The notes: generated by a model from the sequence alone, not told the origin. A stretch of DNA of 64,000 nucleotides from an uncultured virus (IMG/VR IMGVR_UViG_2061766007_000378) (IMGVR_UViG_2061766007_000378), one strand, 5' to 3'; counted from the first letter of the stretch, positions 1 to 14,938 are shown. Numbers and translations: made by a program.

Positions 1-141
1 GAATTGAACTTGAACTCTGTGGAATCCTTTCTCAGTAACGTTGTGCGGGATTTCTTTATCTGTGTATCGGTTGATGACCTTACCGTCTTCCGTTACGGCG
101 TGTGTTCCTCGCTGGAGGAACCATCTGTACATGTCAGTCAT
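1..141 (-). CDS. HNH endonuclease, N-terminal fragment (allelic copy of 6364..6740; runs off window)
   Basis: Minus strand reads MTDMYRWFLQRGTHAVTEDGKVINRYTDKEIPHNVTEKGFHRVQVQF, near-identical to the + strand ORF at 6364. Confidence 0.75.
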   Translation of the reverse strand, partial: MTDMYRWFLQRGTHAVTEDGKVINRYTDKEIPHNVTEKGFHRVQVQF

Positions 142-1643
142 TAGTCGCAGTCCTCCATTCTGATTCGAACATCTCTTCGGAATAGTCGATCTTCTGTTCC
201 AATGCTTTCTTCATTCCAATGTCAAGCCAATTGTTTTGGAAAAACAGATGATAGACTACGGTAGAGTTTTGACCGATTCGGTGNNNNNNNNNNCCCTTGC
301 TCCCAATCTTTGTAGAGCGGCATTGAGAAAATAATACACTGATTGTATTCCTGCCAGTTCTTTCCCGTAGAACCGGACGCAAAGTTAGCGAGGATAATGT
401 TCTTCTTCGACCGAAGCTTCTCGTAGTCTTTCATTTCGCAGTAGCGTTCGTAGAATACGAGAGACTTTATTTCGCCACAGTAGACGTCGACGTTATAACC
501 AAGCTCACTGCATATGTCATAGATCTCAAGTAATTCCGGAGTGTAATTATAAAACAGTACGTAGTTGTTTTCATTCTGCTCCAGAAACCGTTTAAGTTCG
601 TTAAGCCGAGAGTTGTCGTACCACACGGACTCTTCCGCGTTTCCCTGAAATCCGATCGACGCCTGACGTGCTCTGAGCCATGCGAGTCCGCTCGTCGTAG
701 CGAAGTATTTCATATCAGGGTAATCCAAGTTCCGGTAGAACGGATTTATGTCTTTCGTCGTTTTGTTTTCCGGGAGAAGGAGTTCTGGATGCGTACCGAT
801 AAGCTGCTCGTTAATAGTTTTTGCGGGGAGTTTCGGATACGAGAACAGGTCGAAACACTTGGTTTGTTTTTGAACGTGGTTCACAAAGATCTGCTCCGGT
901 AAATCGATGACGTCTTTTGACTTAATAGTGATCGCATACTTGTGGATCAGTTCGTAAAGAGTATCTAAGTTTTTGTATCCGACTATCGGCTGCTGATATC
1001 CAAGCAAGCCGGGACGGTTTCCTCTAATACAAAAGGTATCTACGAACTCTCCCTTCGTCATCTTACATCCGAGAAGTTTAAGCTGAGAGTACAAGTCAAC
1101 GAAGCCAGTAGTGAAAGGCGTTCCGCTTGCGAGATACGTGTAGACTGCCGAACCGACGATATGTAAGTTACGATGGATCATTTGGATCGCTTTCGTTTGG
1201 AGACTTTGTAAGTTCTTTATCTTGTGGGATTCGTCGATGATGAGAGCGATGCGTTTATCGACGCACTGTAAAAGGAAGTTAGTAATGCATTCCCGGAGTT
1301 GGACCGAAGTTCTCGCCGTAGTGTTCCGCTTGAACAAGGACTCGTAATTCAGGATTATCATGTCGAGATTTCGACCGTCTCTAATCGTATCTTTATTCGC
1401 GATCCGGTATGGGATCTCGGCTTGTTTTCCCCAATCCCACCATGAAGACGATACTGATTCGTCCTCTGTGGCTTTACTGTTAATCGTAATAACGATTATC
1501 TTATCGCACTTATTCTTTTCCGCGAGGGCAAGACTAACGGGAGTCTTGCCCAAACCGCAGTCTAGAAATAAGCCGTAAGAGCCGCGCGAAGCGGCGGTGT
1601 CTACTATTTTCTTTTGCCAGTCAAACAGCTTATCGTAAATCAA
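134..1643 (-). CDS. SNF2-family (SF2) helicase, interrupted by a 10-N gap
   Basis: GLFLDCGLGKT (motif I), IIDESH (motif II), ASGTP (motif III), C-terminal R-I-H-R-I-G-Q-like motif VI (complete in the copy at 5890); strong RBS before TTG. Confidence 0.9.
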
Positions 1644-1685
1644 CGTTCCTCCTCCTCCTTGTAGTTTGCGTACTTAACGAACAGT

Positions 1686-1910
1686 TCAGCAGGTTCCATA
1701 AGGGTTACCTCCATAGTATTCCTCTTCAGCTTTTTTTCTTATCGCTAAGGCATCTTCAATGGTCTTGAATGCCCCGAGATATTTTTCTTTCCCATCAACG
1801 ACTATGCGAGCTTGATAGTATTCGCTTTTATTGTTTCCGCCAGTCTTATAGACTCCGGGATATCCGGTCTTACTTCTTGGGGTTGCTTCTGTGTAAAACT
1901 TTTTTCTCAT
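1686..1910 (-). CDS. Stand-alone AP2-domain DNA-binding protein
   Basis: SKTGYPGV...YYQARIVVDGKEKYLGAFKTIEDALAIRKKAE matches the AP2 fold pattern. Confidence 0.8.
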   Translation of the reverse strand: MRKKFYTEATPRSKTGYPGVYKTGGNNKSEYYQARIVVDGKEKYLGAFKTIEDALAIRKKAEEEYYGGNPYGTC

Positions 1911-1933
1911 GTCAAGCTTCTCCTCCTATCTGA

Positions 1934-2350
1934 TTAGGCGATTCTCAAAAGACCGCCGAGAGCCGGTTTGATTTGAACCGTTCCGAATTCGGAACACCAT
2001 TCGTCGTCTTTGTTCCATACCCATGCGAATACTCCGAACGAACCGTCACCGACCGGATGTACTGAATATTCTTCATCCTCTTCATACTTGCCGGACCAAA
2101 GCATTGTGTAGAGTTCGCCGAAGTTGGTCATGTTATGAATGACCGCGTAGACGGTTCCGCCGTACTCTTCTTCGACCGCACGGATTTTGTTAACGAGTTC
2201 GGGCTCGTTCTTTTCGTCGACGTAGTAGCCGCCGTATCCTTCGTACATGGTCACAGTGCCTTTCTTATAGGCGTTGAGATACGGCTTGTAGCAGCCGATG
2301 GTTTCAAGGTAACGGATAGCGTTTTGTTTTTGTTGGTCTTTAGTAATCAC
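1934..2350 (-). CDS. Hypothetical early protein
   Basis: 138 aa ORF with RBS and its own CGGCTT-N20-TATAAT promoter. Confidence 0.75.
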   Translation of the reverse strand: MITKDQQKQNAIRYLETIGCYKPYLNAYKKGTVTMYEGYGGYYVDEKNEPELVNKIRAVEEEYGGTVYAVIHNMTNFGELYTMLWSGKYEEDEEYSVHPVGDGSFGVFAWVWNKDDEWCSEFGTVQIKPALGGLLRIA

Positions 2351-2382
2351 AACTGTTTACTTCCTTTCTTTATTGTGCCTTT

Positions 2383-2414
2383 ATTATACTGTATATGATT
2401 TTGATTTCAAGCCG
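2383..2414 (-). promoter_or_regulatory. CGGCTT-N20-TATAAT promoter
   Basis: cggctt gaaatcaaaatcatatacag tataat on minus strand. Confidence 0.8.
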
Positions 2415-2428
2415 GGAAGGGAAGGGGA

Positions 2429-3020
2429 TTATTCATCCCCTTCTTCATCCTCAGAATTCCAGAGATTGTTGGTGAACTCGTCGGCAGAGTCCAACGTATT
2501 CGGTTNNNNNNNNNNGATTCCAGAGATTGTTGGTGAACTCGTCGGCAGAGTCCAACGTATTCGGTTCGAATGCATGCATGACTCCGTCCGGTGTGTAAAC
2601 GTCGGGTTTCTTGTACCATACGATTCCGCAGTTCTTATTGCCCGCGCATTCGTCGGCGTACGCATGCTCAACGATGATGTCGAACTTTTCCGCGATAGCA
2701 CGAATAACGGGAGTCGGCGGAGCCCATGCGGTCCAAAATGAAATGGTATCATGAGGTTGACCGTCTTCGAAGGGTTCGGAGTTGTAGGCGTTCCACTTAG
2801 TGCCCCAGTTTTCGGTGGACCAATCGTACCAGTTTTGGTCGCCGTACTTCTCGCGTTCCTGCTGGCCTAGGGGGCCCTGATAGATGTTGTCCGGCATAGG
2901 AATGACTTTGTTAAAGTCAATGGTTCCGAGTCCATTGGAACCGGCGATGGAAGTAAGAACGGTCTTCAGTTTTTCGTCGTCACAAATGAACGTGACTCTG
3001 TTAAGAACATGATTTGGCAT
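2429..3020 (-). CDS. DUF1281/YubB ferredoxin-like domain protein (gap with ~50 bp duplicated on either side)
   Basis: MPNH..NR, DFNKVIPMP, WYDW...NWGTKWNA, FWTAWAPP signature motifs. Confidence 0.8.
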
Positions 3021-3051
3021 AATGTAAATCTCCTTTTGTTATTGTACTTTT

Positions 3052-3083
3052 ATTATACTGCATATGATTTTGATTTCAAGCCG
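3052..3083 (-). promoter_or_regulatory. CGGCTT-N20-TATAAT promoter
   Basis: Differs by one base from the 2383-2414 promoter. Confidence 0.8.
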
Positions 3084-3087
3084 AATA

Positions 3088-3168
3088 TTTTTTCCCGCCA
3101 CGGGAACCGGCAAAGCCGGTCCCGCTTTGGGAAAGGAAGAATGATATGGATGAATTGGTTTTTGTACT
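3088..3168 (-). ncRNA. Putative small RNA with anti-Shine-Dalgarno segment and GC-rich hairpin
   Basis: Downstream of promoter 3175-3206, no RBS-led ORF, hairpin cgggaaccggc-aaa-gccggtcccg. Confidence 0.35.
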
Positions 3169-3174
3169 GTATTC

Positions 3175-3206
3175 ATTATACCATAGTCGGTTTTAGTTGT
3201 AAGCCG
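3175..3206 (-). promoter_or_regulatory. CGGCTT-N20-TATAAT promoter
   Basis: cggctt acaactaaaaccgactatgg tataat. Confidence 0.75.
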
Positions 3207-3230
3207 GGGTTTGAGATTTTTTTTCTCCTT

Positions 3231-3259
3231 AGCGGAGCCGCCGTTGCCGGCGGTCCGCT
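3231..3259. terminator. GC-rich hairpin after the vWA gene
   Basis: agcggagccgccg-ttgc-cggcggtccgct; no clear U-tract on the minus strand. Confidence 0.45.
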
Positions 3260-3271
3260 TCGGATGTCCGC

Positions 3272-4942
3272 TCACCTGAGCATCCGCTTGAGCGCAGTCA
3301 TGACCTTTTCTTCGAAGAGTTCTGCGTAGTCGCTGCTCACGATGGTGGAGTTTGCTTTCTTGCAGAGCTTCTTGATCCGGTCCTCGTTGTCGGTGTCGGA
3401 GATGATGTAACAGTTCGGATGGTTGAACGCTGCCCATGCACGCTTGTGCTCGTCAAGTCTTTTCAGGTAGTACTGACTCTCGCCGTCGAAGACAACAAGG
3501 TTGTACGTCATGGCCGTAGGATCCTGAAGCCGTTTGTAGATGTCGAAGATCTCGCGACCTAACGCGTTGCCTCCGCCGCACACGATCTCACGCTCGTTCT
3601 TGCCTGCGATCTCCGTGGTCTGTCCGCACTTCACGACGTTCAGCGTGAAGTTAGGAAGCCGACGCTCTATCATCGAGAGGGCCTTGATGATCTCATTGAG
3701 CTTTTTCTGAGATCCTGTAAAAGATCCGGAGACGTCGCAGAACAGGTTGATCCGCAAGCCGACGAACCGGGCGAACTGTCCCTGCGGGTTTTCTTTTTCC
3801 CACCATTTGTAGTTTTCCGGACGGCCTGCTCTGTGGATCAGCTTAGGGTCAAGTTTTCCGGAGTAGGCCGGAGTAGCTCCCGCCGTGCGGCCGCGCTTTT
3901 TGATCGACGCCTCAACAAGCCGGGAGATTTTGCCCGCAAGCTCCGTGCCTTCGTACTGGTGGAACACGCTGTCGATGGCCGCCTTGAGCGTTTCGCGTGT
4001 GTCCGCGTTAAGCTCATTGATGATCGTCTCAAGGTTTTCGGGCGGGATGCGATTGCTCAGCGAAGCCGGACCGTTGGATTTCGTTTTCTGGTCTGTGGTT
4101 TCGTCTTCGGTTGAAGCCGAATCCTCAGAGCCGGTGTCCTCAGTATCCGCACCGTCGGTTGAAGCCGAACCCTCAGACTCATCCTCATTCTTGCCCTCGC
4201 CGTCGTGCGTGCCTTCAGGCGTTCCATTAGGCGTTCCATCAGGCGTGCCCTCATGCGTCTCGCTTTCGTGTGAAGCCGAAGTCGCATTGGTTTCCGTACC
4301 GTTTTTGGTGCCTCCGTTGTTTGAAGCTGAACTATTGTTTGAAGCCGGACCGTTTTGGTTTCCGCTCATAGCTGCGTTGAATACGTCGCGCACTTTGCGC
4401 CAGAACTCGTTCACGTCTTCTATATAGTCGTGGATGGTCTCCCAGTCATCAGTGGCCGCGTTCAGAGCCGCGTGCTTTTTAATGATATCATAGACTTCCT
4501 TGACGAGGTCCGCAGGTCCTTCGCCGTAGCGCACGATATCGTAGAAGAATTGCATGGGTGAAGCCGGAGCTTCAGGCATCGTGTGGTTGTTGATAAGCCG
4601 AACGTTTTTCTGGAAGTCGACGTTCATGTAGAACGCTTTGAGCAGGGTCTCAATGCGCTGGTCTTCGAACACGTTGATTATGTCCGTGACCCGCATGTTC
4701 TTAGGGGTTAAAATCGCGTGGCTGATCTCGTGGTACAGGACGCCGCGAACGATTTCCTCCGCGTGGGGATCGGTCTCGCTTAAGCCGTCAAGCGGGAGCA
4801 TTTTGAAGCCGACGACGATGCAATAGTGCATGGGGTCGTAGTAGCTGTTCTGTCCGGGATCAAGCCGAACGTCGATCTTGTGGCCGAGGTAGTAACCGAC
4901 AGGGAGCGTGCGCATGATGCGTGAAACTTTTTCGAATTCCAT
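3272..4942 (-). CDS. Metallopeptidase-like (HEXXH) plus vWA domain protein, partner of a MoxR-type AAA+ ATPase
   Basis: LYHEISH and FEDQRIE in the N-terminal domain, acidic low-complexity linker, MIDAS DVSGS and VVFDG; RBS before ATG at 4942. Confidence 0.85.
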   Translation of the reverse strand: MEFEKVSRIMRTLPVGYYLGHKIDVRLDPGQNSYYDPMHYCIVVGFKMLPLDGLSETDPHAEEIVRGVLYHEISHAILTPKNMRVTDIINVFEDQRIETLLKAFYMNVDFQKNVRLINNHTMPEAPASPMQFFYDIVRYGEGPADLVKEVYDIIKKHAALNAATDDWETIHDYIEDVNEFWRKVRDVFNAAMSGNQNGPASNNSSASNNGGTKNGTETNATSASHESETHEGTPDGTPNGTPEGTHDGEGKNEDESEGSASTDGADTEDTGSEDSASTEDETTDQKTKSNGPASLSNRIPPENLETIINELNADTRETLKAAIDSVFHQYEGTELAGKISRLVEASIKKRGRTAGATPAYSGKLDPKLIHRAGRPENYKWWEKENPQGQFARFVGLRINLFCDVSGSFTGSQKKLNEIIKALSMIERRLPNFTLNVVKCGQTTEIAGKNEREIVCGGGNALGREIFDIYKRLQDPTAMTYNLVVFDGESQYYLKRLDEHKRAWAAFNHPNCYIISDTDNEDRIKKLCKKANSTIVSSDYAELFEEKVMTALKRMLR

Positions 4943-4972
4943 AATCTTGTTCCTTTCTGTATTGTGCATTCA

Positions 4973-5003
4973 TTATACTGCATATGATTTTGATTCTAAG
5001 CCG
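4973..5003 (-). promoter_or_regulatory. CGGCTT-N20-TATAAT promoter
   Basis: cggctt agaatcaaaatcatatgcag tataat. Confidence 0.8.
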
Positions 5004-5022
5004 ATGAACTTGAGGCCTTGCC

Positions 5023-5879
5023 TTAGAAGGCAAAGCTCTCAAGCACGCTTGCGTCCGCTTTAAATTCCTTGATGACGGACGCGCGGTCCACAATGGGCTC
5101 GGGCAGACTGAAGACCTGTCCGTTGACGACCAAGTTCATAGTGGCGATGATCTTGAAGCCGGGAGCGATGGTGATCGTTTCGCCTTCGAAGTCGAACGCC
5201 GTTTTGTTGTCCAGCAGACCTTGCAGGAAGCGCATGCTCTGCATGGGCAGCAAGTTGAACTCATCGAGTATGTGCGGGCGGCCTGCGATCATGTCATCGA
5301 GTAAAGCCGAATGTTTGAAGACCGGATTGCCGTTGGCGTCGTTAAAGTCGAAGACTTTCAGAAGGTCGTGCGAGTCTTTGGTTTCGTCGCACACGGTCAC
5401 GGTCGCGGTCGGGTACTTGGCGATCGCCTCCGAGCTTTTGCCTGTGCCTTGCGGGCCGAAGTAGATTTCAAGCCGAGAGTTGATTTCCTTGCCCGTGGCA
5501 AGCGCGTTCCCTTCATTGTAAAGCATATCAAATTCGGGGGACTTGAGCTTGTCCGTGATGGCGTCCGTGTCCGGATGGTCGGACAGCATGCAATAGGCGG
5601 TCACGTAGCGTTTGGCCGCTGCGAGCGAGCGCTGACGGATGAGCGTGTTTGTGAAGCGTGCGCTTACCGCGAAATCAAACTCGCTGAAGAATTTCAGCAA
5701 GCCGACGCTGAAGTCGTGCCGTTTCTGTTTGATTTCTTCGGTTACAGTCACGATCTCAGGGGCAGGGACAGGGGCAGAAGCTAAATCCTCAAACGCACAG
5801 GCAGGGGCCCCGGTGATCGGAACTGCCGTTGCGGTAGTGGTAGCGTAAGCCGACGGTCTTACCACACGGGGGGCCCCCC
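5023..5879 (-). CDS. MoxR/dynein-related AAA+ ATPase (5' end lost in gap)
   Basis: Walker A GPQGTGKS, Walker B ILDEFN, IIATMN sensor, LPEPIVDR arginine finger. Confidence 0.85.
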
Positions 5880-5889
5880 NNNNNNNNNN

Positions 5890-6371
5890 CATCTCGGCTT
5901 AACGAACTTAAAAGGTTCCTTGAGCAGAATGAAAACAACTACGTGCTGTTTTATAATTACACTCCGGAATTACTTGAGATCTATGACATATGCAGCGAGC
6001 TTGGTTACAACGTCGACGTCTACTGCGGTGAAGTAAAGTCTCTCGTATTCTACGAACGCTACTGCGAAATGAAAGACTACGAGAAGCTTCGGTCGAAGAA
6101 GAATATTATCCTCGCTAACTTTGCGTCTGGTTCTACGGGAAAGAACTGGCAGGAATACAATCAGTGCATTATTTTCTCAATGCCGCTCTACAAAGACTGG
6201 GAGCAAGGAATTAAAAGGATTCACCGAATCGGTCAAAACTCTACCGTAGTCTATCATCTGTTTTTCCAAAATAATTGGCTTGACATTGGAATGAAGAAAG
6301 CGTTGGAACAGAAGATCGACTATTCCGAAGAGATGTTCGAATCAGAATGGAGGACTGCGACTAATGACTGA
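5890..6371 (+). CDS. SNF2 helicase C-terminal part (allelic inverted duplicate of 134..~615)
   Basis: Protein almost identical to the C-terminus of the first helicase copy; includes QGIKRIHRIGQ. Confidence 0.85.
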
Positions 6372-7054
6372 CATGTACAGATGGTTTCTCCAGCGAGGAA
6401 CGCACACCGTAACGGAAGACGGTAAGATCATCAACCGATACACGGGAAAAGAACTCCCGCACAACGTTACTGAGAAAGGATTCCATAGAGTTCAAGTTCA
6501 ATTCCGTTGGGGCAGCGGAGTAAAGACGCAATGGTTTTACGTGCATAAGCTAGTTGCGACGGCTTACGTACGCAAGCCCTCTCCGGATTACAAGACCGTT
6601 CGTCACATAGACGGAGACAAGAACAACAACTCCGCGGCTAACCTTCAGTGGTGCAGATCGCTTCGCGAAGCGGTTAAGATCGCTCATCAGAAAGAACGAT
6701 ACGACAAAGAGAAGATGAAGACTGCGGCTTGTAAGAAGCTNNNNNNNNNNCCAATTCCGTTGGGGCAGCGGAGTAAAGACTCAATGGTTTTACGTGCATA
6801 AGCTAGTTGCGACGGCTTACGTACGCAAGCCATCTCCGGATTACAAAGCCGTTCGTCACATAGACGGAGACAAGAACAACAACTCCGCGGCTAACCTTNN
6901 NNNNNNNNCCTTGCCGTTGACATCCTCAATAACAGACAGATCGAATTCAACAGCGTACTGGAAGCGTCTCTCTGGTTAAGCACTTCCGGCTTAACCCCTA
7001 ATAAGCAGGCTTCTATCAGAAGTCATTTAAGCGCCGTACTAAAAAGGGCGAAGC
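6364..7054 (+). CDS. HNH homing endonuclease with C-terminal NUMOD1/IENR1 domain (fragmented by gaps and allelic duplicates)
   Basis: YVHKLVATAYV...VRHIDGDKNNNSAANLQWC, then FNSVLEASLWL...SAVLKRAKPSAYGYMW (also at 10189..10419). Confidence 0.8.
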
Positions 7055-7162
7055 CNNNNNNNNNNNNNNNNNNNNNNNNNNNNNNNNNNNNNNNNNNNNN
7101 NNNNNNNNNNNNNNNNNNNNNNNNNNNNNNNNNNNNNNNNNNNNNNNNNNNNNNNNNNNNNN

Positions 7163-7314
7163 AAGACGACGACTTCGACATCTCGGTCGCTCTGTCTGGA
7201 ATCGACATGAACCCGAGTACGGTCCGAGTGTACGACTTCAGCACTCCGAAGGGAAGAGTGTTCGTTGAAGTCTGGCCGGGCGGACATATCAAGATCGACA
7301 AGAGCCAGCTATGA
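7163..7314 (+). CDS. Hypothetical protein, C-terminal part (N-terminus at 10033..10164, minus strand)
   Basis: DDDFDISVALSGIDMNPSTVRVYDF...KSQL*; shares DDDFDISVAL with the 10033..10164 fragment; TGA overlaps the VRR-NUC ATG. Confidence 0.6.
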
Positions 7315-7613
7315 AAACACCGGAAAGAAAAGTCAAAGACGAGATCGCAGCGTATCTCCAGAAGAGATCCTCTGCCGGCGACAAGATATACGGCGAAGCC
7401 CGCGAAGCGGGAGGATACACGTATAAGAAAGGCCTACCGGACATTTGGATCGTCTACAACGGAATCCACCTTGAGGTAGAGATCAAGGGCCCCCGGGGGG
7501 TACGCTCTCCGATGCAGATCAAATGGGAGCAGATCTTTAACCGCTTAGGGATCAGATACTGCTGCGTCTCGTCGGTAGAAGAACTCGATACTATACTGAA
7601 AGGAATGGTTTAA
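7311..7613 (+). CDS. VRR-NUC domain nuclease (Holliday junction resolvase-like)
   Basis: PERKVK, GLPDI, EVEIK, SPMQ motifs. Confidence 0.85.
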   Translation: MKTPERKVKDEIAAYLQKRSSAGDKIYGEAREAGGYTYKKGLPDIWIVYNGIHLEVEIKGPRGVRSPMQIKWEQIFNRLGIRYCCVSSVEELDTILKGMV

Positions 7614-7820
7614 ATGTACGAAACTTTGCGAAGCATCTATCTGAAAACGAAAGAGTATATAAAAATACTGCGCGTTTATACTCACGACCATATCTTACTC
7701 GAAGAGTTAGGAGACGAGGAAAGCATCCGTAAGTACGTCGACGATTTCGGCGATCATCACGTAGATAATTTCCAGTTGCTTCATAACGCGTCAGTATTCG
7801 AGTTCACGTTTTCAGATTAA
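7614..7820 (+). CDS. Hypothetical protein
   Basis: 68 aa ORF abutting VRR-NUC, followed by a hairpin. Confidence 0.6.
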   Translation: MYETLRSIYLKTKEYIKILRVYTHDHILLEELGDEESIRKYVDDFGDHHVDNFQLLHNASVFEFTFSD

Positions 7821-7850
7821 AAAAAAAGGAGGGCAGTATAACTGCCCTCC
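7819..7850 (-). terminator. Intrinsic terminator between convergent genes
   Basis: ggagggcagt-ata-actgccctcc with an A-tract on the left (U-tract on minus strand). Confidence 0.75.
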
Positions 7851-7932
7851 CCAAAACTCAGGAAAAGAAAGAGAAACCCAAGTTTTAATTTATATAAAAG
7901 GAGAAGTTCGGCTTACTTTTTATTCGGCCGCT

Positions 7933-8928
7933 TTAACCCTTTATAGCGTCTTTAATTTCACGGAGAGTATTTATATATTCATCTCTTGCATCCATATATT
8001 TAATAAACATCTCCCGCGTAATTAAATCATGTGCGTAAGCGAACGCTATCCCGTAAAAGTTTCTTGGTCCGTCCATCTCTTCGCTTATCATATCGATATA
8101 CTTCTTAGCAGACGGTACGTCATCCGTAGCGTCGATCACTTTAGCCGGTTTCATACCCTTAAAAGCAAGCTGATTGCCTATATAAGACCAGAATCCGTAA
8201 TTCCGATTCATTTTATCGAAAAAGTCTTTCTCGTACTCTTGCATATAATTTAAAAGTTCGCGAAGAGTTCTGGCTTTAGACTGCATCATTATTTTATTGA
8301 TCTGGATCTTATCGTCATTAGTAAGCCCGAGATCGATCGCTTTCTTTCTGAGAAGATCGTTGACCTGCTCATGATGTTCCGTGGAAAGCTCGGTGAAAAC
8401 TGTTCCGTTCCGATACAGATCTTTGTGAAGCGCTTCGGCTTCTTCCAACGTTTTGACGTTAGCTACGGCTTCTTTCGCCCGTAAGTAATTGAACCATTCT
8501 GTTTTTCCTGATTCGGCTTCTCTGTAGCCTTCGACTTCTTCTTCATAAGAGTCTCCCATTGCTGTTCTTACTCTAACGTTATTAAGCTTATTGTGTAAGT
8601 AAGCCCAAACGGGGTACGCGTTCGTACGGGTAATAAGCCCTTGCACATGGCGCGAAAGATAGTCGAACACGTCGTCTGGATCTTTCCCTCCGAGCTTCCA
8701 AGACTCGACGAACTCGTCGACGGCGTCTTTCGTTTCCGGGTTAACGTACTGCGCGGCTTTCTTTAAGAGAAGGCTCTCAAGCAGTTCTCTCTGCGCTCTC
8801 GTACGGATCGCGCCTTTATAAGTATGAAGAAGGTTGCGTACGCCGTTAAGTCTTTCCGGACTGTCGATACCTTCGACCAATTCTTTTAATTCTTCAAACG
8901 TAAATCCTTTATCGTTTACTTCTACCAT
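7933..8928 (-). CDS. Hypothetical modular protein (possible head cargo)
   Basis: 331 aa; modules separated by TKDAV, MGDSY, VIDAT, IKDAI. Confidence 0.7.
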   Translation of the reverse strand: MVEVNDKGFTFEELKELVEGIDSPERLNGVRNLLHTYKGAIRTRAQRELLESLLLKKAAQYVNPETKDAVDEFVESWKLGGKDPDDVFDYLSRHVQGLITRTNAYPVWAYLHNKLNNVRVRTAMGDSYEEEVEGYREAESGKTEWFNYLRAKEAVANVKTLEEAEALHKDLYRNGTVFTELSTEHHEQVNDLLRKKAIDLGLTNDDKIQINKIMMQSKARTLRELLNYMQEYEKDFFDKMNRNYGFWSYIGNQLAFKGMKPAKVIDATDDVPSAKKYIDMISEEMDGPRNFYGIAFAYAHDLITREMFIKYMDARDEYINTLREIKDAIKG

Positions 8929-8931
8929 TTC

Positions 8932-9771
8932 TCAGATCCTCTTTCCTATGATATACTCTTTGCCGTTGAACAGACACGTAGCGAGGACGCTGTAGTTCGG
9001 ATCCGCGTGGATCAGATTATCGCCGATATAATCCGCGTCGACTGAATCCTCTACCGTGAGAACGTCGTTGTTCTTATCGTACAAGTACACGATGAGCTTA
9101 GACTTCGCGACTTCTTCCGGCTTAAGCTCGGAAGAATCCGGGAGACTCTTGATCAAGGAGTTAAATCTTTCCGCGTCCGATCTCTCGTCTTCACTATTCG
9201 GCTTACTCTCTTCTTCGGCTTCTTCTTCAAGCTCTTTCGCGTAATTGAGCAGACCATCGTAATCGTCGTCGTTTAAGAACTCGGCGTAATACTCGGTCTC
9301 CGTGCGGACGTCTTTCGCGGTTTCGGCTTTATTCCCCCAGCGCAGCTGTCTCGCGGCTTCGGTATAGATCTCATCCGCAATTTTCCCGGAGAGGTCGATC
9401 ATGAGCCTGTCCTCGATCCGGATGTCGTCCAGCGAATCTTTTTTGATCTTTCCCTTGCGGGCTTCCTTCTCTTCCTTCTCGTCGAGACTGACGACCTTGC
9501 GAGAGTAGATCCCGACCCAGTTCAACAGTCGGCTTCCTTGTCTCAGTTCGATGTCCAGCCGTCCTGTGTCCCACACCTTCTGAAGTTCCTCGTCGGTGTA
9601 TTTCAATTGCGTGTTTACGTAGTTCTTAAACTCTTTGTACGCCGGCTTAAGTTCGTTGAATTTTTTAATGGAATACCAAGTGAAAGCGTTATCAATGAAC
9701 GTCCCCAAATAAATTTCAAAGACGTCCGAATTCGACTTAACTTCTTTCGCCTTGTTTACTTTCTTAGGCAT
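8932..9771 (-). CDS. Hypothetical modular protein (possible head cargo)
   Basis: 279 aa with RBS; KKDSL, IEDRL, VEDSV motifs. Confidence 0.7.
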   Translation of the reverse strand: MPKKVNKAKEVKSNSDVFEIYLGTFIDNAFTWYSIKKFNELKPAYKEFKNYVNTQLKYTDEELQKVWDTGRLDIELRQGSRLLNWVGIYSRKVVSLDEKEEKEARKGKIKKDSLDDIRIEDRLMIDLSGKIADEIYTEAARQLRWGNKAETAKDVRTETEYYAEFLNDDDYDGLLNYAKELEEEAEEESKPNSEDERSDAERFNSLIKSLPDSSELKPEEVAKSKLIVYLYDKNNDVLTVEDSVDADYIGDNLIHADPNYSVLATCLFNGKEYIIGKRI

Positions 9772-9799
9772 AGCGATCCTCCTTCGGCTTTCTTTCCTT

Positions 9800-10022
9800 A
9801 ATTATAATACGCGCGTAAGAAACGGTATACTCACGCCTAGAAAAAATTTTTCGCTCGCGTAAGACTTGCGGGCCCGGAGGGGGAGGGGCCGGTAGGGGCC
9901 GGTATGGAAAATTTTTTGGAAAAATTTCCGGAGGAAATCAAAATTAATTTGTTCGCAATTCGGCAACAACTAAAATTCATTTTATTATTTCCCCTCAAAA
10001 AAGGCCCCTAATTCATATATAT
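9800..10022. other. Non-coding region with G-runs, short direct and inverted repeats; possible genome end or packaging site
   Basis: ggggccggta x2, cgcgtaaga x2, A/T tracts. Confidence 0.35.
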
Positions 10023-10032
10023 NNNNNNNNNN

Positions 10033-10164
10033 CCCAGCCAGAGCGACTGAGATGTCGAAATCGTCGTCGTCTCGCGAGAAGAAGGATGACTTCTTCTTTT
10101 TGCCGTCGTCGATACCGAGATGGTACTTACGCCATTCTTCAGGATTGTTAATAGGGTCTAACAT
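10033..10164 (-). CDS. Hypothetical protein N-terminus (allelic to 7163..7314)
   Basis: MLDPINNPEEWRKYHLG...DDDDFDISVALAG with GGAGG RBS. Confidence 0.6.
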
Positions 10165-10188
10165 AGTTTTTCTCACCTCCTGCAGTTA

Positions 10189-10419
10189 TTATACTATGTA
10201 CCACATATAGCCGTAAGCCGAGGGCTTCGCCCTTTTTAGTACGGCGCTTAAATGACTTCTGATAGAAGCCTGTTTATTGGGAGTTAAGCCGGAAGTGCTT
10301 AACCAAAGAGACGCTTCCAGTACGCTGTTGAATTCAATCTGTCTGTTATTAAGGATGTCGACGGCAAGTAGCTTCTTACAAGCCGCAGTCTTCATCTTCT
10401 CTTTGTCGTATCGTTCTTT
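10189..10419 (-). CDS. NUMOD1 C-terminal part of the HNH endonuclease (allelic inverted copy)
   Basis: Matches 6690-6740 and 6909-7054. Confidence 0.75.
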   Translation of the reverse strand, partial: KERYDKEKMKTAACKKLLAVDILNNRQIEFNSVLEASLWLSTSGLTPNKQASIRSHLSAVLKRAKPSAYGYMWYIV

Positions 10420-10471
10420 NNNNNNNNNNNNNNNNNNNNNNNNNNNNNNNNNNNNNNNNNNNNNNNNNNNN

Positions 10472-10835
10472 AGATAATAAAGAAGATAATAAAATGAAAT
10501 ATAATTGTTAACAAATTGCGAACAAATTAATTAGCTCATTTTCCCCCAAAAGTTGTTCTTTAATAGCTTTTAACTTACGTTTATGCACAGGCGCCTACTA
10601 TATTTCGACCCGTTTTGCCGATTATTATTTCGGCCTTTTGAGGTCTGTTTAATAAACTTTTATTTGCGTTTGAAATTAGTTAATCCTGTAAGACTTTACT
10701 AGACTTTTATTATCTTGTTGTTCAACTTCGTAATATATTATTATTTACATTTAATGCGATACGCGCTATAATATTTATAGAATAAAAATTATTTCTCAAC
10801 CGTTACTTTTAATAAACTTTTATTTACGTTTGAAA
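10472..10835. repeat. AT-rich intergenic region with 28-bp direct repeats; candidate origin
   Basis: tttaataaactttTATTT(g/a)cgtttgaaa at 10648 and 10808; agacttt x2 at 10691/10701. Confidence 0.5.
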
Positions 10836-10844
10836 GGAGTAAGT

Positions 10845-11249
10845 ATGAAACTGTTTTTACTGTCGTGCGGGCACGTGCTCAAGCTCGATTCGAAAAAGGA
10901 TAAAAACGGAAATTATTACGAGATCGTGTCCGGTAAGAGACCTATGTGCGACCGTTGCGGGCAAGGATCGGTGATCGACCGCAAGCTGAAGACCCAGTAC
11001 GACGGGCTCGAAGGACGGTTCGCCGTCTGCGGAGAAAAGAAAGTGCGGTCCTCGTGGCTGCTGCCGGGATTCGTCTACTGTCCGGACGAAGAGAACGACC
11101 GGTTCCTATGGTCGAACAGATCGTACGTCCGCGATACGCACGGAAGCCAGCCCGTCCCAGTATCCGACCTTCCCGGCGTTCCGGAAAAGAAACGGAGACC
11201 CCGTACGGAATGGTTCGAAAAGCTTATCGAAAAAGAAAAGAAAAAATAA
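10845..11249 (+). CDS. Cys-rich (putative Zn-binding) hypothetical protein
   Basis: LSCGH, CDRC; AAGGAG RBS. Confidence 0.65.
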   Translation: MKLFLLSCGHVLKLDSKKDKNGNYYEIVSGKRPMCDRCGQGSVIDRKLKTQYDGLEGRFAVCGEKKVRSSWLLPGFVYCPDEENDRFLWSNRSYVRDTHGSQPVPVSDLPGVPEKKRRPRTEWFEKLIEKEKKK

Positions 11250-11282
11250 TTATTCGTTCGGCTACGGATTATNNNNNNNNNN

Positions 11283-11673
11283 GTTGTGCGGTGGCAAAGT
11301 CAAGCGAAGTTATGTGACGGCAAAGCGAAGTAAGGTAAATTTAGGTAATGTATCGGCAAAGCAATGAACCGCAAAGTAATGCAAAGGAAATGCACTGATT
11401 AGATTCGAACAGTAAAGGCAAGGTAATAAGTGGCGTGGTAAAGGCAAGGCGATGCGTGGCGTTGCATAGGCAAAGTGCAGATAAGTTCAGAAAAGTAGAG
11501 GCATAGTATCGACACGTTATGATTGCTATGAAACGTAACGGTGAAGTTTTGTATCGCGACGGCAAAGCAGGGTTTAGTCATGTAAAGGCGAAGAGAGGCG
11601 TGGTAACGGAATAGAATAGAAATGATATGTCCTGTTTAGGAATAGCCCAGTTAGGAACGGTCCAGAAAAGCAA
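11283..11673 (+). ncRNA. 5-nt periodic NGH-NN repeat array; VIPR-like guide RNA array (5' part lost in gap)
   Basis: By hand parse 72 of 74 pentamers have G at position 2 and none has G at position 3; 13 blocks each start with GG (mostly GGCAA) after one extra base; directly upstream of a RAMP gene. Confidence 0.85.
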
Positions 11674-11716
11674 AAGCAAAAAGAAAGAATTAATAACAAA
11701 AAGAAAGGCAAACAAA

Positions 11717-12310
11717 ATGAAAGAAATCAAAGTTAAACTCACGTTTACGGAACCGATCCTCGGTTCAAGCTCCGGCAACCCCGAACTCCATTCTGAGTTC
11801 ATCGCAAGCAAAGCTCCCGACGCAAAGTCGAGAGAAGAAGAAGTTGAAGCTCTCGGTGCCGACGAGGTCGAGAAGAAAGAGATGACTGTGTTCCCGAGAA
11901 CGGAGGACGGAACCCCGTTTATTTGGGATTATCAGATTCGCGGATTCTTCAAACACGCCTGCGGAATGCTGAAGAGTATCGGCGGCGGAAACGAAAGCGA
12001 AAAGATCAAGGCCCACAAGAAAGTCGTTGACGGAATGGTCTTCGTTAAAGAGAGAAAGATTCCGTTTCATTATGACGGTAAGATCGGAAGTCTGCAAAGA
12101 CCGCTTCGCGGACAGACGGCTCAGGGCGAGAGAATCGCTCTTGCGAACAGCGAGATGATCAATGCCGGCGCAACGATCGAGTTCACGATCCAGATCCTGA
12201 AAGAAGACCTTGAAAACGCCATTTATGAATGGCTTGACTACGGTCAGTTCAACGGGATCGGGCAGTGGAGAAACTCCGGAATGGGAAGATTTACATGGGA
12301 AAAACTTTAA
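11717..12310 (+). CDS. Solitary RAMP/Cas7-like RNA-binding protein (Vipr-like)
   Basis: N-terminal strand KVKLTFTEPILGS, helix YQIRGFFKHAC, SEMINAGATIEFTI strand, C-terminal Gly-rich loop GIGQWRNSGMGRF; RBS AGAAAGG. Confidence 0.85.
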   Translation: MKEIKVKLTFTEPILGSSSGNPELHSEFIASKAPDAKSREEEVEALGADEVEKKEMTVFPRTEDGTPFIWDYQIRGFFKHACGMLKSIGGGNESEKIKAHKKVVDGMVFVKERKIPFHYDGKIGSLQRPLRGQTAQGERIALANSEMINAGATIEFTIQILKEDLENAIYEWLDYGQFNGIGQWRNSGMGRFTWEKL

Positions 12311-12675
12311 AGAATAAATTTTTGAACGAACAAAAAGTATTAAACGGAAAATTTAATATTGAATTACATAAACAAACGTTCATTAATTATCTTGAAGTTG
12401 TCGTTCGTAAGGACGGGACGGTTGAATATGCCGTCCCTTCCCATCAAGAAAAGCTGATCGCTATTGCTAATGAAATGGGATATAATAGAGACTGGTTGGA
12501 TAAGAACTGTCCGAGAGAATATTATTTCAATTTCATGCAGTGGATGTGCAATCTAACGGGATGCGTGTCTTTGTGGTTCGACTATAAAATAAGCCCCGAA
12601 CAAGGAAGAACGCCGGAACAGAACAAAGCGATATGGGAGCTTGTTAAAGCAGAAATTTATAAAGGAGCATTTTGA
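12295..12675 (+). CDS. Hypothetical protein overlapping the RAMP gene stop
   Basis: YLEVVVRKDGTVEYAVPSHQE motif; overlap suggests coupling. Confidence 0.7.
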   Translation: MGKTLKNKFLNEQKVLNGKFNIELHKQTFINYLEVVVRKDGTVEYAVPSHQEKLIAIANEMGYNRDWLDKNCPREYYFNFMQWMCNLTGCVSLWFDYKISPEQGRTPEQNKAIWELVKAEIYKGAF

Positions 12676-12676
12676 T

Positions 12677-12935
12677 ATGCTGTATACGAGATATGTCGTT
12701 AAACTGAAAAAGTATCAGGACTTGATTGAGTTCATGGTTCCCGATGGTGTTAAGTCGGAAGCCGCTACCTATCAGCAGGTGAACGCCGAAACTGGAGAGG
12801 CGAACGCGTCGTTAATCATTTTAATAAATGGCGAAGTTCAATTCATCACTCCGATAGTAGAAATCGAAGTTTATCAGAAGAGCGTCGTAAACGTTGCCGA
12901 TAAACCGCATGAAGAAGACACGGATAAAGATCCGG
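12677..12935 (+). CDS. Hypothetical protein (3' end in gap)
   Basis: AAGGAG RBS, open to the gap. Confidence 0.6.
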
Positions 12936-12985
12936 NNNNNNNNNNACTGATCGACCGGAAAAAAGCATGGTCCAATAAATAACGC

Positions 12986-13017
12986 CGGCTTGGGAACGAT
13001 CGCCTTTGCGGTATAAT
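12986..13017 (+). promoter_or_regulatory. CGGCTT-N20-TATAAT promoter of the periodic array (allele A)
   Basis: cggctt gggaacgatcgcctttgcgg tataat. Confidence 0.75.
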
Positions 13018-13023
13018 TAACTC

Positions 13024-13132
13024 GTAAGATACGGCGACAGCATTGTACCGAAATGTTGGGCGATGGCAAAGCGATGCGAAGTATGGCTTCGGCAAAGTAA
13101 AGCGGAGTGTTGCTAGGGCAAAGTAAAGCGAA
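13024..13132 (+). ncRNA. 5' end of the NGH-NN periodic array, allele A
   Basis: agcat tgtac cgaaa tgttg ggcga t ggcaa agcga tgcga agtat ggctt c ggcaa agtaa agcgg agtgt tgcta g ggcaa..., ends at gap. Confidence 0.8.
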
Positions 13133-13142
13133 NNNNNNNNNN

Positions 13143-13418
13143 GACGTCACGGTCTGCTTCGACGAGCCGCTTCTGACGGCGAATCCCGAAGCCGACGAGA
13201 ACGAGACCTTCTGTTATATCGATACGAACAATCTTCCCGAGGTCGAAGAGTTCATCAAGTCTAACGGACTTGGCAAACCGACGAAGATCACTAAGGCCTC
13301 CGGATTCTGTACTTATCCGCTGTACAAAATGAATCTCGGTAAACTGAGAGAGCTGGCCGTTGAAAATTATTACGACAAACGGCAAATCAAAGAACAAAAA
13401 GAAAGCGAGGACGAATAA
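13143..13418 (+). CDS. DUF4313-like protein (5' end in gap)
   Basis: YIDTNN...EEFIKSNGLGKPT...SGFCTYPLY. Confidence 0.7.
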   Translation, partial: DVTVCFDEPLLTANPEADENETFCYIDTNNLPEVEEFIKSNGLGKPTKITKASGFCTYPLYKMNLGKLRELAVENYYDKRQIKEQKESEDE

Positions 13419-13419
13419 T

Positions 13420-13863
13420 ATGGCGGAGCATCATAGCTGGTCGGCCGAAGAGCTAAGACGCCTGGGAGAAAAGAAAGCGAGAGAATGGAAAGCGACGATC
13501 GAAACCAAAGCGAAGACCTGCGCGGGAGAGATCATTAAAGACCTCGATTCGAAACTTCCCGGCTGCGTCGAAAGAGGACTGACGGAAACCGAAACCTCTA
13601 TCTGCATGACCCTGCCGAACTACCGCGGCGATATTCCGCCGGAACAGTTCGTCGCCGCAGTGTACGCGATCCTCGATCCGTATTTCAAAAACCTAGGATT
13701 CAACGTACCGAAACGGAGAGACTACATGTCGACCTACTATCACGTCAGCTGGAAAGAACCGAAGCGGTACAAAGAAGAGGACGAAGCGTTCGAAGTGGAC
13801 GAAGCGTTCGAAGAAGACTTCGAAAACGCTCCTCCCGTATTCTACGAAAAAGAAAGCAAATAA
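13420..13863 (+). CDS. Hypothetical protein
   Basis: RBS-led ORF in operon. Confidence 0.65.
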   Translation: MAEHHSWSAEELRRLGEKKAREWKATIETKAKTCAGEIIKDLDSKLPGCVERGLTETETSICMTLPNYRGDIPPEQFVAAVYAILDPYFKNLGFNVPKRRDYMSTYYHVSWKEPKRYKEEDEAFEVDEAFEEDFENAPPVFYEKESK

Positions 13864-13884
13864 AAGAAAGAGAGAGAAAACAAA

Positions 13885-14673
13885 ATGAGCATGGTCGAAA
13901 CGAGATATTATAACGCTATATGGTACGTGCCGGAAGACGAAACAGAAGCTGACGTCGCACAGGAAACAAGAATACTTTTGCCCGATATGGTCGATCGTAT
14001 TTATAGGGAGATTCTCGTTCCTCCCATTTGCCGGAATAAATTTATTATCACGGACGTTGAACAAGTAAAAAGCACTTCGGTAGTGGTCAGAGGCGTCACA
14101 GGCATAAGAACGGGCTGTGAAAACGTGGTCATTAACTTTTACTTTGTGAAAAAATCGCAGGTACCTAGTTGGATGGTCTGCGAGTATAAGATCAGAAATA
14201 TATACGATCTCGCTGCGATGCTCGCATGCGTTACGTATCAGCCGTCCAATGATACAATCAACGGGATCCATCCGACAGCACATTGCAGTCATCAACCTCC
14301 GAAAGAAGTCCATAGCGGTATGCCTGAAAACGGAGCGTATATCAACATGCGCATGATGGACGAAGGCGACCTCATGGCCAATCGAGAACCGCCTGAAACA
14401 AGTACCAATTTTATAATGACGCTTACGACTAACCTGACAAAAATATTTAACGGAGAAAAAGAGGTACTAAAAAGTATGATCAAATCGGTTACGATCAACG
14501 AGAAAAAGAAAGTTACGACAGTCGTTTTTACAGACGGCGATGTACAGATGGCCAAGTGTTCGAAGAACGACGAGTACGATAAGACCGTCGGTATCAGCAT
14601 CTGCATTGCGGCTCACCTAGCCGGAAGCAAAGAGAAACTGAAAAAATTCGTTAAGGAGATCACGGAGAAATGA
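13885..14673 (+). CDS. Hypothetical protein
   Basis: 262 aa; C-terminal TTVVFTDG...KCSKNDEYDKTVG motif common in phage proteins. Confidence 0.65.
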   Translation: MSMVETRYYNAIWYVPEDETEADVAQETRILLPDMVDRIYREILVPPICRNKFIITDVEQVKSTSVVVRGVTGIRTGCENVVINFYFVKKSQVPSWMVCEYKIRNIYDLAAMLACVTYQPSNDTINGIHPTAHCSHQPPKEVHSGMPENGAYINMRMMDEGDLMANREPPETSTNFIMTLTTNLTKIFNGEKEVLKSMIKSVTINEKKKVTTVVFTDGDVQMAKCSKNDEYDKTVGISICIAAHLAGSKEKLKKFVKEITEK

Positions 14674-14903: not shown

Positions 14904-14906
14904 CGC

Positions 14907-14938
14907 CGGCTTGGGAACGAACTCCTTTGCGGTATAAT
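14907..14938 (+). promoter_or_regulatory. CGGCTT-N20-TATAAT promoter of the periodic array (allele B)
   Basis: cggctt gggaacgaactcctttgcgg tataat. Confidence 0.75.

Follow-up and report, generated by a model that had tools for sequence, protein, structure and literature searches.

A promoter-associated hexamer as a probable oriented array of putative binding sites within four genes of an uncultured phage

Enrichment, exactness and strand polarity characterize the hexamer CGGCTT (AAGCCG on the complementary strand) in the window, which is the whole 64,000-nt stretch of DNA analysed here, and its coupling to predicted promoters extends over three phage genomes, the window and two relatives. Within the window, the distribution of the hexamer points to an unusual oriented array of putative binding sites, on one strand, within the coding sequence of four genes. 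At a rough probability of 0.4, the in-gene copies would be halves of promoter sites, retained in a single orientation for the reader of the promoter element.

Distribution of the hexamer and order of the scaffold

The window holds 74 copies of AAGCCG/CGGCTT, against 26.3 +/- 5.1 in dinucleotide-preserving shuffles (n=100; none reached 74). The two clusters and the genes and signals associated with them are as follows.

3078..5852, minus strand: cluster A, 23 CGGCTT (AAGCCG on the plus strand), sense to the AAA5 gene and g565
7909..9790, plus strand: cluster B, 13 CGGCTT, antisense to g331 and g279
5023..5879, minus strand: AAA_5 (MoxR/CobS-like) ATPase gene (AAA5), 5' end cut by the contig end
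3272..4969, minus strand: g565, 565 aa, with HExxH peptidase-like N-part and DxSGS vWA-like C-part
8932..9771, minus strand: g279, 7/7 sense AAGCCG opportunities used
7933..8928, minus strand: g331, 4/6 sense AAGCCG opportunities used
222..1643, minus strand: SNF2-type helicase gene, mid-block, 3/8 opportunities used
7826..7852, minus strand: terminator-like hairpin (12 pairs and a T run) at the end of the g279-g331 operon

A recount reproduces what a sequence-only reading of this DNA had reported for both intervals, with 23 AAGCCG on the plus strand and none on the minus strand at 3078-5852, and 13 CGGCTT with no AAGCCG at 7909-9790. Its estimate of less than one copy per interval by chance also agrees with base composition, which gives 0.55 per 3 kb against the 23 observed, and the sparseness it described from 11 to 64 kb stands, with its figure of about 20 copies becoming 23. 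The copies fall in all three frames, as it had noted, and are translated as RL, xGF/xGL and [SP]A[SYL] in the sense direction (3272-4969 and 5023-5892) and as EAE/KA/KP at 7933-9771. Not all lie within genes: in cluster A three sites are downstream of g565 (3078, 3113 and 3201) and one precedes its start (4998), and cluster B starts within the 5' leader of g279 (9785) and continues into the untranslated stretch that follows g331 on its 3' side (7909). The sites of cluster B point against the genes that hold them. Gaps between sites are irregular, ranging from 17 to 527 bp; helical phasing was considered and set aside as not robust, the best value for cluster A being p 0.0013 at 11.3 bp among 26 periods, with none for cluster B.

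The window is a gapped scaffold of 19 pieces, and the proposal that 1-5879 is inverted relative to 5890-10022 is borne out by independent contigs from other studies. Inverted repeats with 96% identity pair 295-611 with 5892-6208 and 1-283 with 6222-6504. Contigs from runs X1, X2, X5 and X7 join 7163/7201 to 10033/10074, and also 6690/6740 to 10369/10419, in both cases on opposite strands. A 26,050-nt contig of another study (X5) is colinear with the reverse complement of 10472-11272, the reverse complement of 7163-10022 and then 336-5879. Among the sequencing runs listed as carrying the stretch there is no RNA run. Once de-duplicated, the true order gives a 9.3-kb block in which 44 CGGCTT share a strand and 2 occupy the opposite one, which upholds a strand-polar DNA signal regardless of gene direction, cluster A being sense and cluster B antisense to its genes; after the block the polarity is mixed (6 versus 16). 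Density reaches one site per ~120 bp and is confined to this ~9-kb block, in which the array operons AAA5 + g565 and g279 + g331 lie either side of the helicase-nuclease operon. Farther on, 13143-15053 comes before 11283-12935. The block had been placed near a probable genome end, a position contradicted by a relative's contig, which continues for 15.7 kb after 5879 and, in the opposite direction, beyond 11272. The loose end of 30 bases that follows 5879 has no second place within the window.

Selection on the hexamer within coding sequence

Enrichment survives shuffles that preserve codon usage, one of the two results on which the earlier proposal of a DNA signal had been made to depend. With 2000 synonymous-codon shuffles per gene, g565 has 14 copies versus 1.59 (reached in 0/2000), AAA5 5 versus 0.56 (0/2000), g279 7 versus 1.92 (0/2000) and g331 4 versus 0.90 (2/2000); the frame used for AAA5 was one base off at the N gap, and the in-frame stretch 5023-5877 gives the same picture. 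Among hexamers seen at least four times, CGGCTT deviates most from expectation in each of the two gene sets, with z 12.5 and 6.1. Synonymous opportunities are used in 30 of 41 cases (73%) in the four genes, including 5/8 in AAA5 and 14/20 in g565, compared with 18/238 in the rest of the window (Fisher p 6e-19). Opportunities in the opposite orientation are used in 0/12 (p 5e-6), and none of the 18 one-mismatch variants is enriched. On the 20.5-kb rightward replication contig there are no sites in promoter orientation and 8 in the other, and the sense opportunities are used in 0/55. An excess of AAGCCG on the sense strand is also seen in many of 70 distant loci (10-16 versus 0-3), where it is probably a coding-strand effect.

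The protein sequences are shifted as well. Places compatible with the motif number 20 in g565 and 21, 12 and 16 in its closest relatives P0001 (97%), P0002 (71%) and P0003 (55%), in which motif use is judged from the protein sequence alone, versus 2-7 in 16 distant homologues. Half of the motif-compatible places of P0003 are absent at the matching positions of the window's g565 protein. For AAA5, protein-level opportunities number 8 here versus 2 in the complete relative G001.

The N-terminal 96 aa of g279 show 79% identity to a relative's 280-aa protein, and this part is conserved in about 70 proteins with variable C-parts. As a reader of the hexamer g279 gained no support; its model has a pLDDT of 78, no PDB fold matches at E<=0.001 and all Atlas leads are below 0.9. 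Profile scans gave no family match for g331.

The promoter class, its occurrence in relatives and candidate readers

CGGCTT is the invariant upstream part of a predicted promoter class, CGGCTT-N20/21-TATAAT. TATAAT lies downstream of 7 of the 74 hexamer sites of the window (spacing 20 in six, 21 in one) and of 14 of the 18 forward sites of G001 (spacing 20 in eleven, 21 in three), and four promoters of the class are found in G002:C1. One-mismatch boxes at 20/21 spacing number six in the window, mostly inside genes, and two in G001. The promoters predicted in the window are the following.

4972..5003, minus strand: N20, before g565
3175..3206, minus strand: N20, after g565
3052..3083, minus strand: N20, reading TTGAAA-16-TATAAT, before g189, in a 53-nt repeat
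2383..2414, minus strand: N20, before g138, in the same 53-nt repeat
10188..10220, minus strand: N21, after the HNH gene and before a gene starting MLDPINN, on a contig flipped in the scaffold
12986..13017, plus strand: N20, with a 94%-identical variant copy at 14907-14938
14907..14938, plus strand: N20, the variant copy of 12986..13017

In all three genomes the predicted promoters face early and replication genes, and the structural module has none. One stands upstream of the g565 homologue in each genome, and in the relatives they precede AAA5, the g565 homologue, primase, exonuclease and others. The promoter at 3175..3206 leads into a stretch of ~80 nt that ends in a strong hairpin (-28.9 kcal/mol, z -4.1), and the hairpin itself holds CGGCTT (3113). 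Judged by spacing and by direction towards genes, the class is predicted to be of sigma-70/sigma-A type with an added upstream box, in which CGGCTT would comprise CGGC and the first TT of a -35-like hexamer, 16-17 bp before a TATAAT that often has an extended TG. Among 70 distant loci, the pattern is found at least three times only in L004. The accessible part of the literature yielded no account of CGGCTT phage promoters or of over-represented strand-specific phage hexamers.

The source phage is uncultured and comes from the cattle gut. Its relative G001 is complete at 73.5 kb, with a capsid protein 74% and a terminase 62% identical. G001 has, at the corresponding position immediately ahead of and around AAA5/g565, 11 sites within 3 kb, among them four tandem promoters that follow each other at ~100 nt with no ORFs and a pair of bare direct repeats. 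It has almost no copies outside promoters, and its AAA5 and g565 homologues have none. In G002 the in-gene array is weak, with opportunities used in 1/8, 2/5 and 2/3. Since it is absent in G001 and weak in G002, the in-gene array is dispensable for the promoter class. Further relatives were sought with limited return. No nucleotide match to cluster A or B is present in the phage collection, tblastn with g565 gave no match, and the terminase search gave matches all below 60% identity. Single-protein scans of viral contigs gave no match for g565 and g279 and only G001 for AAA5, and scans of metagenomes found no closer relative, only one contig equal to G001 and one weak fragment.

A candidate reader is encoded close by.

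1689..1910, minus strand: P0191, 74 aa, stand-alone AP2-like protein, predicted DNA-binding, with homologue matches to Pfam AP2

The AP2 protein named in the sequence-only reading exists, and is probably AP2-like by transitive homology. P0191 itself has no Pfam match at E<=1; of its 943 homologues, five of the ten tested match Pfam AP2 (PF00847), four above the cut-off, and among solved structures its sequence agrees best with an AP2 domain of WRI1 (E 0.011). In G002:C1, tblastn at E<=10 detected no AP2 homologue. The GCC box AGCCGCC is reported to be the target of plant AP2/ERF domains (PMC7593309). This box and the complement of CGGCTT have AGCCG in common, and P0191 may be considered one candidate for reading the hexamer. 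PHROG scans (14, 24 and 38 ORFs) named neither a sigma factor nor MotA, AsiA or any further transcription regulator, and Pfam scans (14, 27 and 18 ORFs) named neither MotA nor AsiA, the scans covering the genome as far as 5879 on that side. Readings of the motif as a Spo0A box, a MerR-type long-spacer promoter or an archaeal TATA/BRE were dropped, as flanks or spacers are not conserved.

Possible roles of the in-gene copies

Under the preferred reading, promoters of the class would drive early and replication genes, and in this lineage the exact hexamer would have been multiplied, in promoter orientation, inside the AAA5 + peptidase/vWA and g279 + g331 operons by synonymous and even amino-acid changes. 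The in-gene sites carry the identical exact hexamer found in the promoter box, from which we infer that bare sites are bound by the same reader; lacking a -10 box, they should bind it without starting transcripts. The reader may be the RNA polymerase of the host together with its sigma factor, a phage-encoded factor such as the candidate P0191, or both. What the array achieves can be suggested in outline: it would most likely serve as an oriented landing pad or sink, either concentrating the reader beside the early promoters or titrating it as genomes multiply, with an effect on the timing of expression. A plain sink needs no single orientation, yet the orientation is strict, so some directional partner is missing from this model. 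Tentatively, then, four genes have been recoded at both the synonymous and the amino-acid level to hold ~35 co-oriented bare half-promoter copies, an array that may capture or titrate the transcription machinery or an AP2-type protein and so set the timing of infection.

An unlikely alternative has the sites act on moving RNA polymerase and not on the search for promoters. A bound reader would be a polar roadblock, or the non-template hexamer would load or pause a factor in the manner of ops-RfaH, and just these two operons would be attenuated or timed, cluster A by way of transcripts running rightward and cluster B by way of collision with g279-g331 or their antisense read-through. Strict polarity, with 0/12 opportunities used the other way round, exact-word recognition (0/18 variants), the limitation of sites to a pair of transcription units, untranslated ends (9785, 7909 and 3113) among them, and avoidance of the motif on the sense strand of replication genes (0/55; 0 versus 8) are all in keeping with such a control, as is the absence of a T run after the 7826-7852 hairpin on the plus strand, which makes rightward read-through into cluster B possible. 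However, the fixed 20-21 bp to TATAAT indicates that the hexamer takes part in initiation, ahead of where the transcript would begin, and no NusG/RfaH-like or Q-like gene was named in PHROG and Pfam scans. The filling of whole transcription units, leader and trailer included, would suit a signal in RNA, with CGGCUU in rightward RNAs and AAGCCG in the g279-g331 mRNA serving as target of a sequence-specific RNase or RNA-binding protein, or pairing the two sets of mRNA; the two operons do carry complementary words, with flanks TTCGGCTTC/GAAGCCGAA common to 3 + 3 sites. Yet inter-operon complementarity does not go beyond the word (shared 10-mers 12 versus 11 in the control, 11-mers 2 versus 5), a single DNA strand is the simpler rule (44:2), and a separate account would be needed of why 25 promoters have the hexamer at -38..-33, before the point at which their own transcripts would begin. 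An RNA-level role is given little weight.

The same low probability attaches to a Chi-like or translocase-orienting word that would restrain the AddAB/RecBCD of the host or direct the entry or packaging of DNA, much as the sequence-only reading had proposed. This short, exact and asymmetric word is indeed strongly polar whichever way the genes run, and GAAGCCG, one base from the S. aureus Chi, is frequent (10/23 in cluster A). The proposal fails to account for the exact hexamer that precedes TATAAT by 20-21 bp in the predicted promoters of three related phages (7 + 14 + 4). The block is internal and not at an end; the mixed polarity outside it means that there is no genome-wide orientation (44:2 in the block but 6:16 after it); G001 is almost without copies outside promoters; and a candidate host bin (2.0 Mb, holding G002:C1 and linked as host by binning alone) has 1998 copies versus 2083 of a reversed-word control. 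Least probable, and largely refuted, is that the copies have no function of their own and are a by-product, whether of horizontal transfer out of a donor richer in GC, local composition or duplication within the sequence. GC3 is indeed higher in the block (0.46-0.72, with AAA5 at 0.72) than in replication genes from 20 to 34 kb (0.23-0.41), and six g565 sites fall on [SP]AS triplets where the sequence is of low complexity and partly repeated. But shuffles that keep each gene's codon usage still leave 14 versus 1.6, equally GC3-rich neighbours carry no hexamer (opportunities used: c8_139 0/2, g167 0/3, g189 0/2), one-mismatch words are not raised and the opposite orientation is unused, and in the subclade the amino-acid sequence is itself shifted towards the word.

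Known systems resemble the array in part. T4 MotA-box middle promoters and class II activator promoters, in which the box of a factor takes the place of the -35 element or adjoins it, likewise join a sigma-70-type -10 box to a clade-specific oriented upstream box at fixed distance and serve a temporal set of phage genes. The MotA box is centred near -30, 11-13 bp from the -10 box, whereas the box here has only 6 exact bases and ends 20-21 bp before TATAAT; assignment to the T4 type was rejected on this spacing, MotA and AsiA also not being named in the scanned ORFs. We know of no promoter class with dozens of bare boxes in coding sequence. Chi, KOPS and SRS are likewise short, exact, asymmetric, strand-polar and tolerated in all frames, but they extend over the whole host replichore at about one per several kb with no tie to promoters, whereas the word here occurs once per ~120 bp in a ~9-kb phage block and is part of a promoter. 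At P1 incA/incC and at E. coli datA, which serves DnaA, clusters of sites in the same orientation flank a gene and also overlap a promoter, and are thought to soak up a DNA-binding protein. In such iteron arrays for titration or handcuffing, an initiator binds direct repeats of 9-22 bp that lie outside coding DNA; the 6-bp unit here is scattered through four genes by synonymous and non-synonymous recoding, and a placement in that class was rejected given its length, its mostly genic position and its irregular gaps. In phage T7 the asymmetric EcoP15I hexamer recurs along one strand and is missing from its complement, genome-wide, which is read as escape from type III restriction. Here the strand bias is a local one and the word is actively enriched; as both orientations occur outside the block, type III escape was rejected. 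Phage phi29 has a handful of Spo0A boxes and parS-like sites in or near genes, overlapping early promoters and bound by known host proteins, compared with about 45 exact copies here for a putative reader.

If the preferred reading is true, an oriented in-gene array of promoter half-sites would be a previously undescribed kind of cis-acting element. Selection seldom rewrites coding sequence so that a regulatory word recurs as often as every ~120 bp, and here this is measurable, the amino-acid sequence being shifted beside the 73% synonymous usage. The link to promoters turns an odd k-mer statistic into a testable question about the reader and the purpose of one-strand, non-firing copies, and opportunity usage offers a simple sequence test by which comparable hidden arrays may be sought elsewhere. 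For this uncultured gut and rumen family of ~70-kb myoviruses, the predicted class provides a first promoter model.

Scaffold structure and true gene order

The window consists of 19 pieces scaffolded with gaps and belongs to an uncultured myovirus; none of 50,697 phage records matches it at nucleotide level. The sequencing runs containing it are bovine-gut metagenomes from several studies, and the sequence is therefore not an artefact of a single assembly. Identified genes include:

54620-55762, tail sheath
56846-57955, major capsid protein
31995-34049, large terminase
elsewhere in the window, DNA polymerase, primases, exonuclease, Sak4-like annealase and ThyX

The proposed inversion of the first contig relative to its neighbour is confirmed by inverted copies at 1-611 and 5892-6504 (96% identical) and by contigs of four runs joining, on opposite strands, 7163/7201 to 10033/10074 and 6690/6740 to 10369/10419. 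A 26,050-nt contig from another study comprises rc(10472-11272), rc(7163-10022), the HNH/helicase junction and 336-5879, then extends 15.7 kb past 5879; the hexamer-rich block is thus internal, not near a genome end as the sequence-only reading had supposed. Together, the joins from independent runs and this contig give the true order as AAA5 > g565 > g189 > g138 > AP2-like > helicase > HNH > gene X > VRR-NUC > orf68, followed by < g331 < g279, a divergent region, 10472-11272, 13143-15053, 11283-12935 and 15064 onward. The four genes of most concern are:

5023-5879, minus, AAA_5 ATPase gene (AAA5)
3272-4969, minus, 565-aa peptidase/vWA-like gene (g565)
7933-8928, minus, g331
8932-9771, minus, g279

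The scaffold order is also wrong in 10023-15063, where run contigs put 13143-15053 ahead of 11283-12935. Strain-variant duplicates (94-97%) occur at 12947-13142/14868-15063 and 6499-6645/6752-6898, and adjacent pieces overlap by 50 bases (2456-2505/2517-2566). The gene for an HNH_3 homing-type endonuclease, which comes immediately behind the helicase gene (6364-6801 plus 10189-10419, minus), is split across two pieces. Genes for tRNA-Leu(TAA) (18408-18494) and tRNA-Gln(TTG) (19269-19345) lie amid small early ORFs. For the RNA polymerase alpha C-terminal domain, the C-end of a 219-aa protein (20576-21235) scores 24.0 bits, barely above the Pfam cut-off of 23.8, and the protein has no blastp match at 1e-5 among ORFs of G001, a complete relative. 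The structural module (37121-38702, 41763-47405) holds a papain-family (Peptidase_C1) protein, a fragment-like UDP-glucose dehydrogenase ORF and an 1880-aa protein with MBG (YGX) repeats. GC3 is 0.72 in AAA5, 0.69 in g565, 0.5-0.65 until about 16 kb, and 0.23-0.35 in the replication genes at 20-31 kb and much of the structural module of the same phage genome; G001 is 28% GC throughout.

Excess and polarity of CGGCTT

A recount reproduced the strand-polar clusters. AAGCCG occurs 23 times on the plus strand in 3078-5852 (cluster A) and 13 times on the minus strand in 7909-9790 (cluster B), with no copy on the opposite strand of either; the remaining 53 kb holds 23 copies, and local base composition predicts 0.55 per 3 kb. 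Both clusters share one DNA strand after flipping, as had been claimed: in true order the 9.3-kb block carries 44 CGGCTT on its top strand and 2 on its bottom strand, sense to cluster A genes and antisense to cluster B genes. The hexamer is indeed read in all three frames, and the excess is not a codon effect, persisting against 2000 shuffles that preserve the protein and each gene's own codon usage. Fourteen copies in g565 (1.59 expected) and seven in g279 (1.92 expected) were each reached in 0/2000 shuffles, and four in g331 (0.90 expected) in 2/2000. In each of the two gene pairs no hexamer stands out more than CGGCTT (z 12.5 and 6.1), its orientation relative to sense being opposite in the two.

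Opportunities, i.e. all places where the protein permits the hexamer by synonymous codon choice, were also counted.

Opportunities used/possible
g565: 14/20
AAA5: 5/8
g279: 7/7
g331: 4/6
the same four genes, opposite orientation: 0/12
five genes between the clusters: 5/16
41 other genes, CGGCTT: 9/155
41 other genes, AAGCCG: 9/83

By Fisher tests on this usage, the excess has p 6e-19 and the orientation p 5e-6. Of the 18 words one mismatch away, none is raised, so the unit is the exact hexamer. Across 15064-35596, 20.5 kb of rightward replication genes, sense CGGCTT is absent (0 vs 8 AAGCCG; 0/55 sense opportunities used). This may reflect avoidance of the promoter word, and fits a word with consequences where placed.

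The amino-acid sequences have shifted towards the hexamer as well. Counted at protein level, hexamer-compatible places number 20 in g565, 21 in its 97% relative, 16 and 12 in relatives of 55% and 71% identity, and 2-7 in 16 more distant homologues; the AAA5 protein has 8 vs 2 in G001. Half the places of the 55% relative are not common to the window's protein, a pattern suggesting that density was selected, not that positions were inherited. Another word, AGCTGG/AAGCTG, is locally in excess in distant g565-family relatives (10-14 copies per 3 kb, <1 expected by base composition; loci L005, L008, L010, L012, L013, L015, L022, L025, L027).

A predicted promoter class in the window and two relatives

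Three 53-nt intergenic repeats read, on the gene strand, CGGCTT, 20 bases, TATAAT and then a ribosome-binding site:

2362-2414, minus, before g138
3031-3083, minus, before g189
4951-5003, minus, before g565

TATAAT lies exactly 20 or 21 bp downstream of 7 of the 74 CGGCTT copies in the window. Read with a 16-17 bp spacer, the word is CGGC plus the TT opening a -35-like hexamer (TTGAAA, TTACAA, TTGCTA, TTAATT). In 3085-3206 (minus) a promoter of this class has no ORF behind it; its predicted RNA of ~80 nt would finish with a strong hairpin (-28.9 kcal/mol, z -4.1) with the hexamer in its top, and may be a small RNA or leader.

A distant homologue search with a g565 alignment returned 70 viral loci. 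One, L004, has AAGCCG nowhere but 11 copies of CGGCTT, every one between genes and patterned as TTAACGGCTTA-N17-TGATATAAT. L004 belongs to G001, a true relative with a complete 73.5-kb genome whose ends overlap (identities to the window: capsid 74%, polymerase 72%, terminase 62%, AAA5 56%) and whose gene order matches the window's, down to the leftward pair behind the helicase. Such promoters account for 14/18 forward copies in G001; just 2 copies lie on the reverse strand, and just 2 promoters have a one-mismatch box. Eleven copies fall within a 3-kb stretch immediately ahead of and around AAA5/g565, the neighbourhood of cluster A. Among them, at 69040-69500 (L004 7960-8420), four tandem promoters ~95-100 nt apart, with no ORF between, are preceded by two bare direct repeats, CAACGGCTTACAAA, 17 nt apart. 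G002:C1, another relative (68.6 kb, capsid 73%), carries four such promoters, before AAA5, the g565 homologue and primase. In the window and relatives all are oriented towards early and replication genes; none was found before structural genes. Sequence comparison of the three genomes gives good support to a predicted promoter function for the hexamer as an exact, oriented DNA word.

Intragenic copies and candidate readers

Multiplication of the hexamer within four genes on the same strand is real and selected. No -10 box follows the intragenic copies when spacings of 17 to 23 are allowed, and the copies show no helical phasing. We favour, tentatively (probability about 0.4), an oriented array of non-firing promoter half-sites, at which the copies would bind whatever reads the promoter word without firing. 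Control of elongation by the sites is a distinctly weaker candidate, and a role at the RNA level is improbable. Longer complementarity between the two operons was also considered; the intragenic copies are not part of any. Equally improbable is a Chi-like signal: in the 2.0-Mb bin containing G002:C1, a candidate host by binning, the hexamer is not over-represented (1998 vs 2083 for the reversed-word control). The promoter pattern occurs 3 times there outside the phage contig, and the two counts argue weakly for a phage-specific reader and against host Chi. An excess without function is the least probable reading.

Pfam and PHROG scans of window ORFs, which on one side reach only to the contig end at 5879, named no sigma factor or known appropriation protein. 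The AP2 protein of the sequence-only reading stands in part: the 74-aa ORF at 1689-1910 has no direct Pfam match, but 5/10 tested of its 943 library relatives match AP2 (4 above cut-off), and the solved structure closest to it in sequence is an AP2 domain of WRI1. A single AP2 domain suffices to bind a short GC-rich box. The GCC box of plants, AGCCGCC (PMC7593309), has AGCCG in common with the complement of CGGCTT. A 47% homologue is present in G001 and none was seen in G002:C1; the AP2-like protein is thus only a lead as candidate reader.

The N-terminal 96 residues of g279 are 79% identical between window and G001, and its predicted model has no fold match. Across ~70 proteins of 158-473 aa (P0121-P0190) this head (~96 residues) keeps 65-93% identity and the C-terminal parts are unrelated, an arrangement of constant head and interchangeable tail. 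Bins titled Methanobrevibacter and Roseburia faecis contain one copy each.

Opportunity usage in G002 is low (1/8, 2/5, 2/3), and G001 has no dense intragenic array. Since both relatives lack the dense array, it is a lineage-specific addition to a common promoter code.
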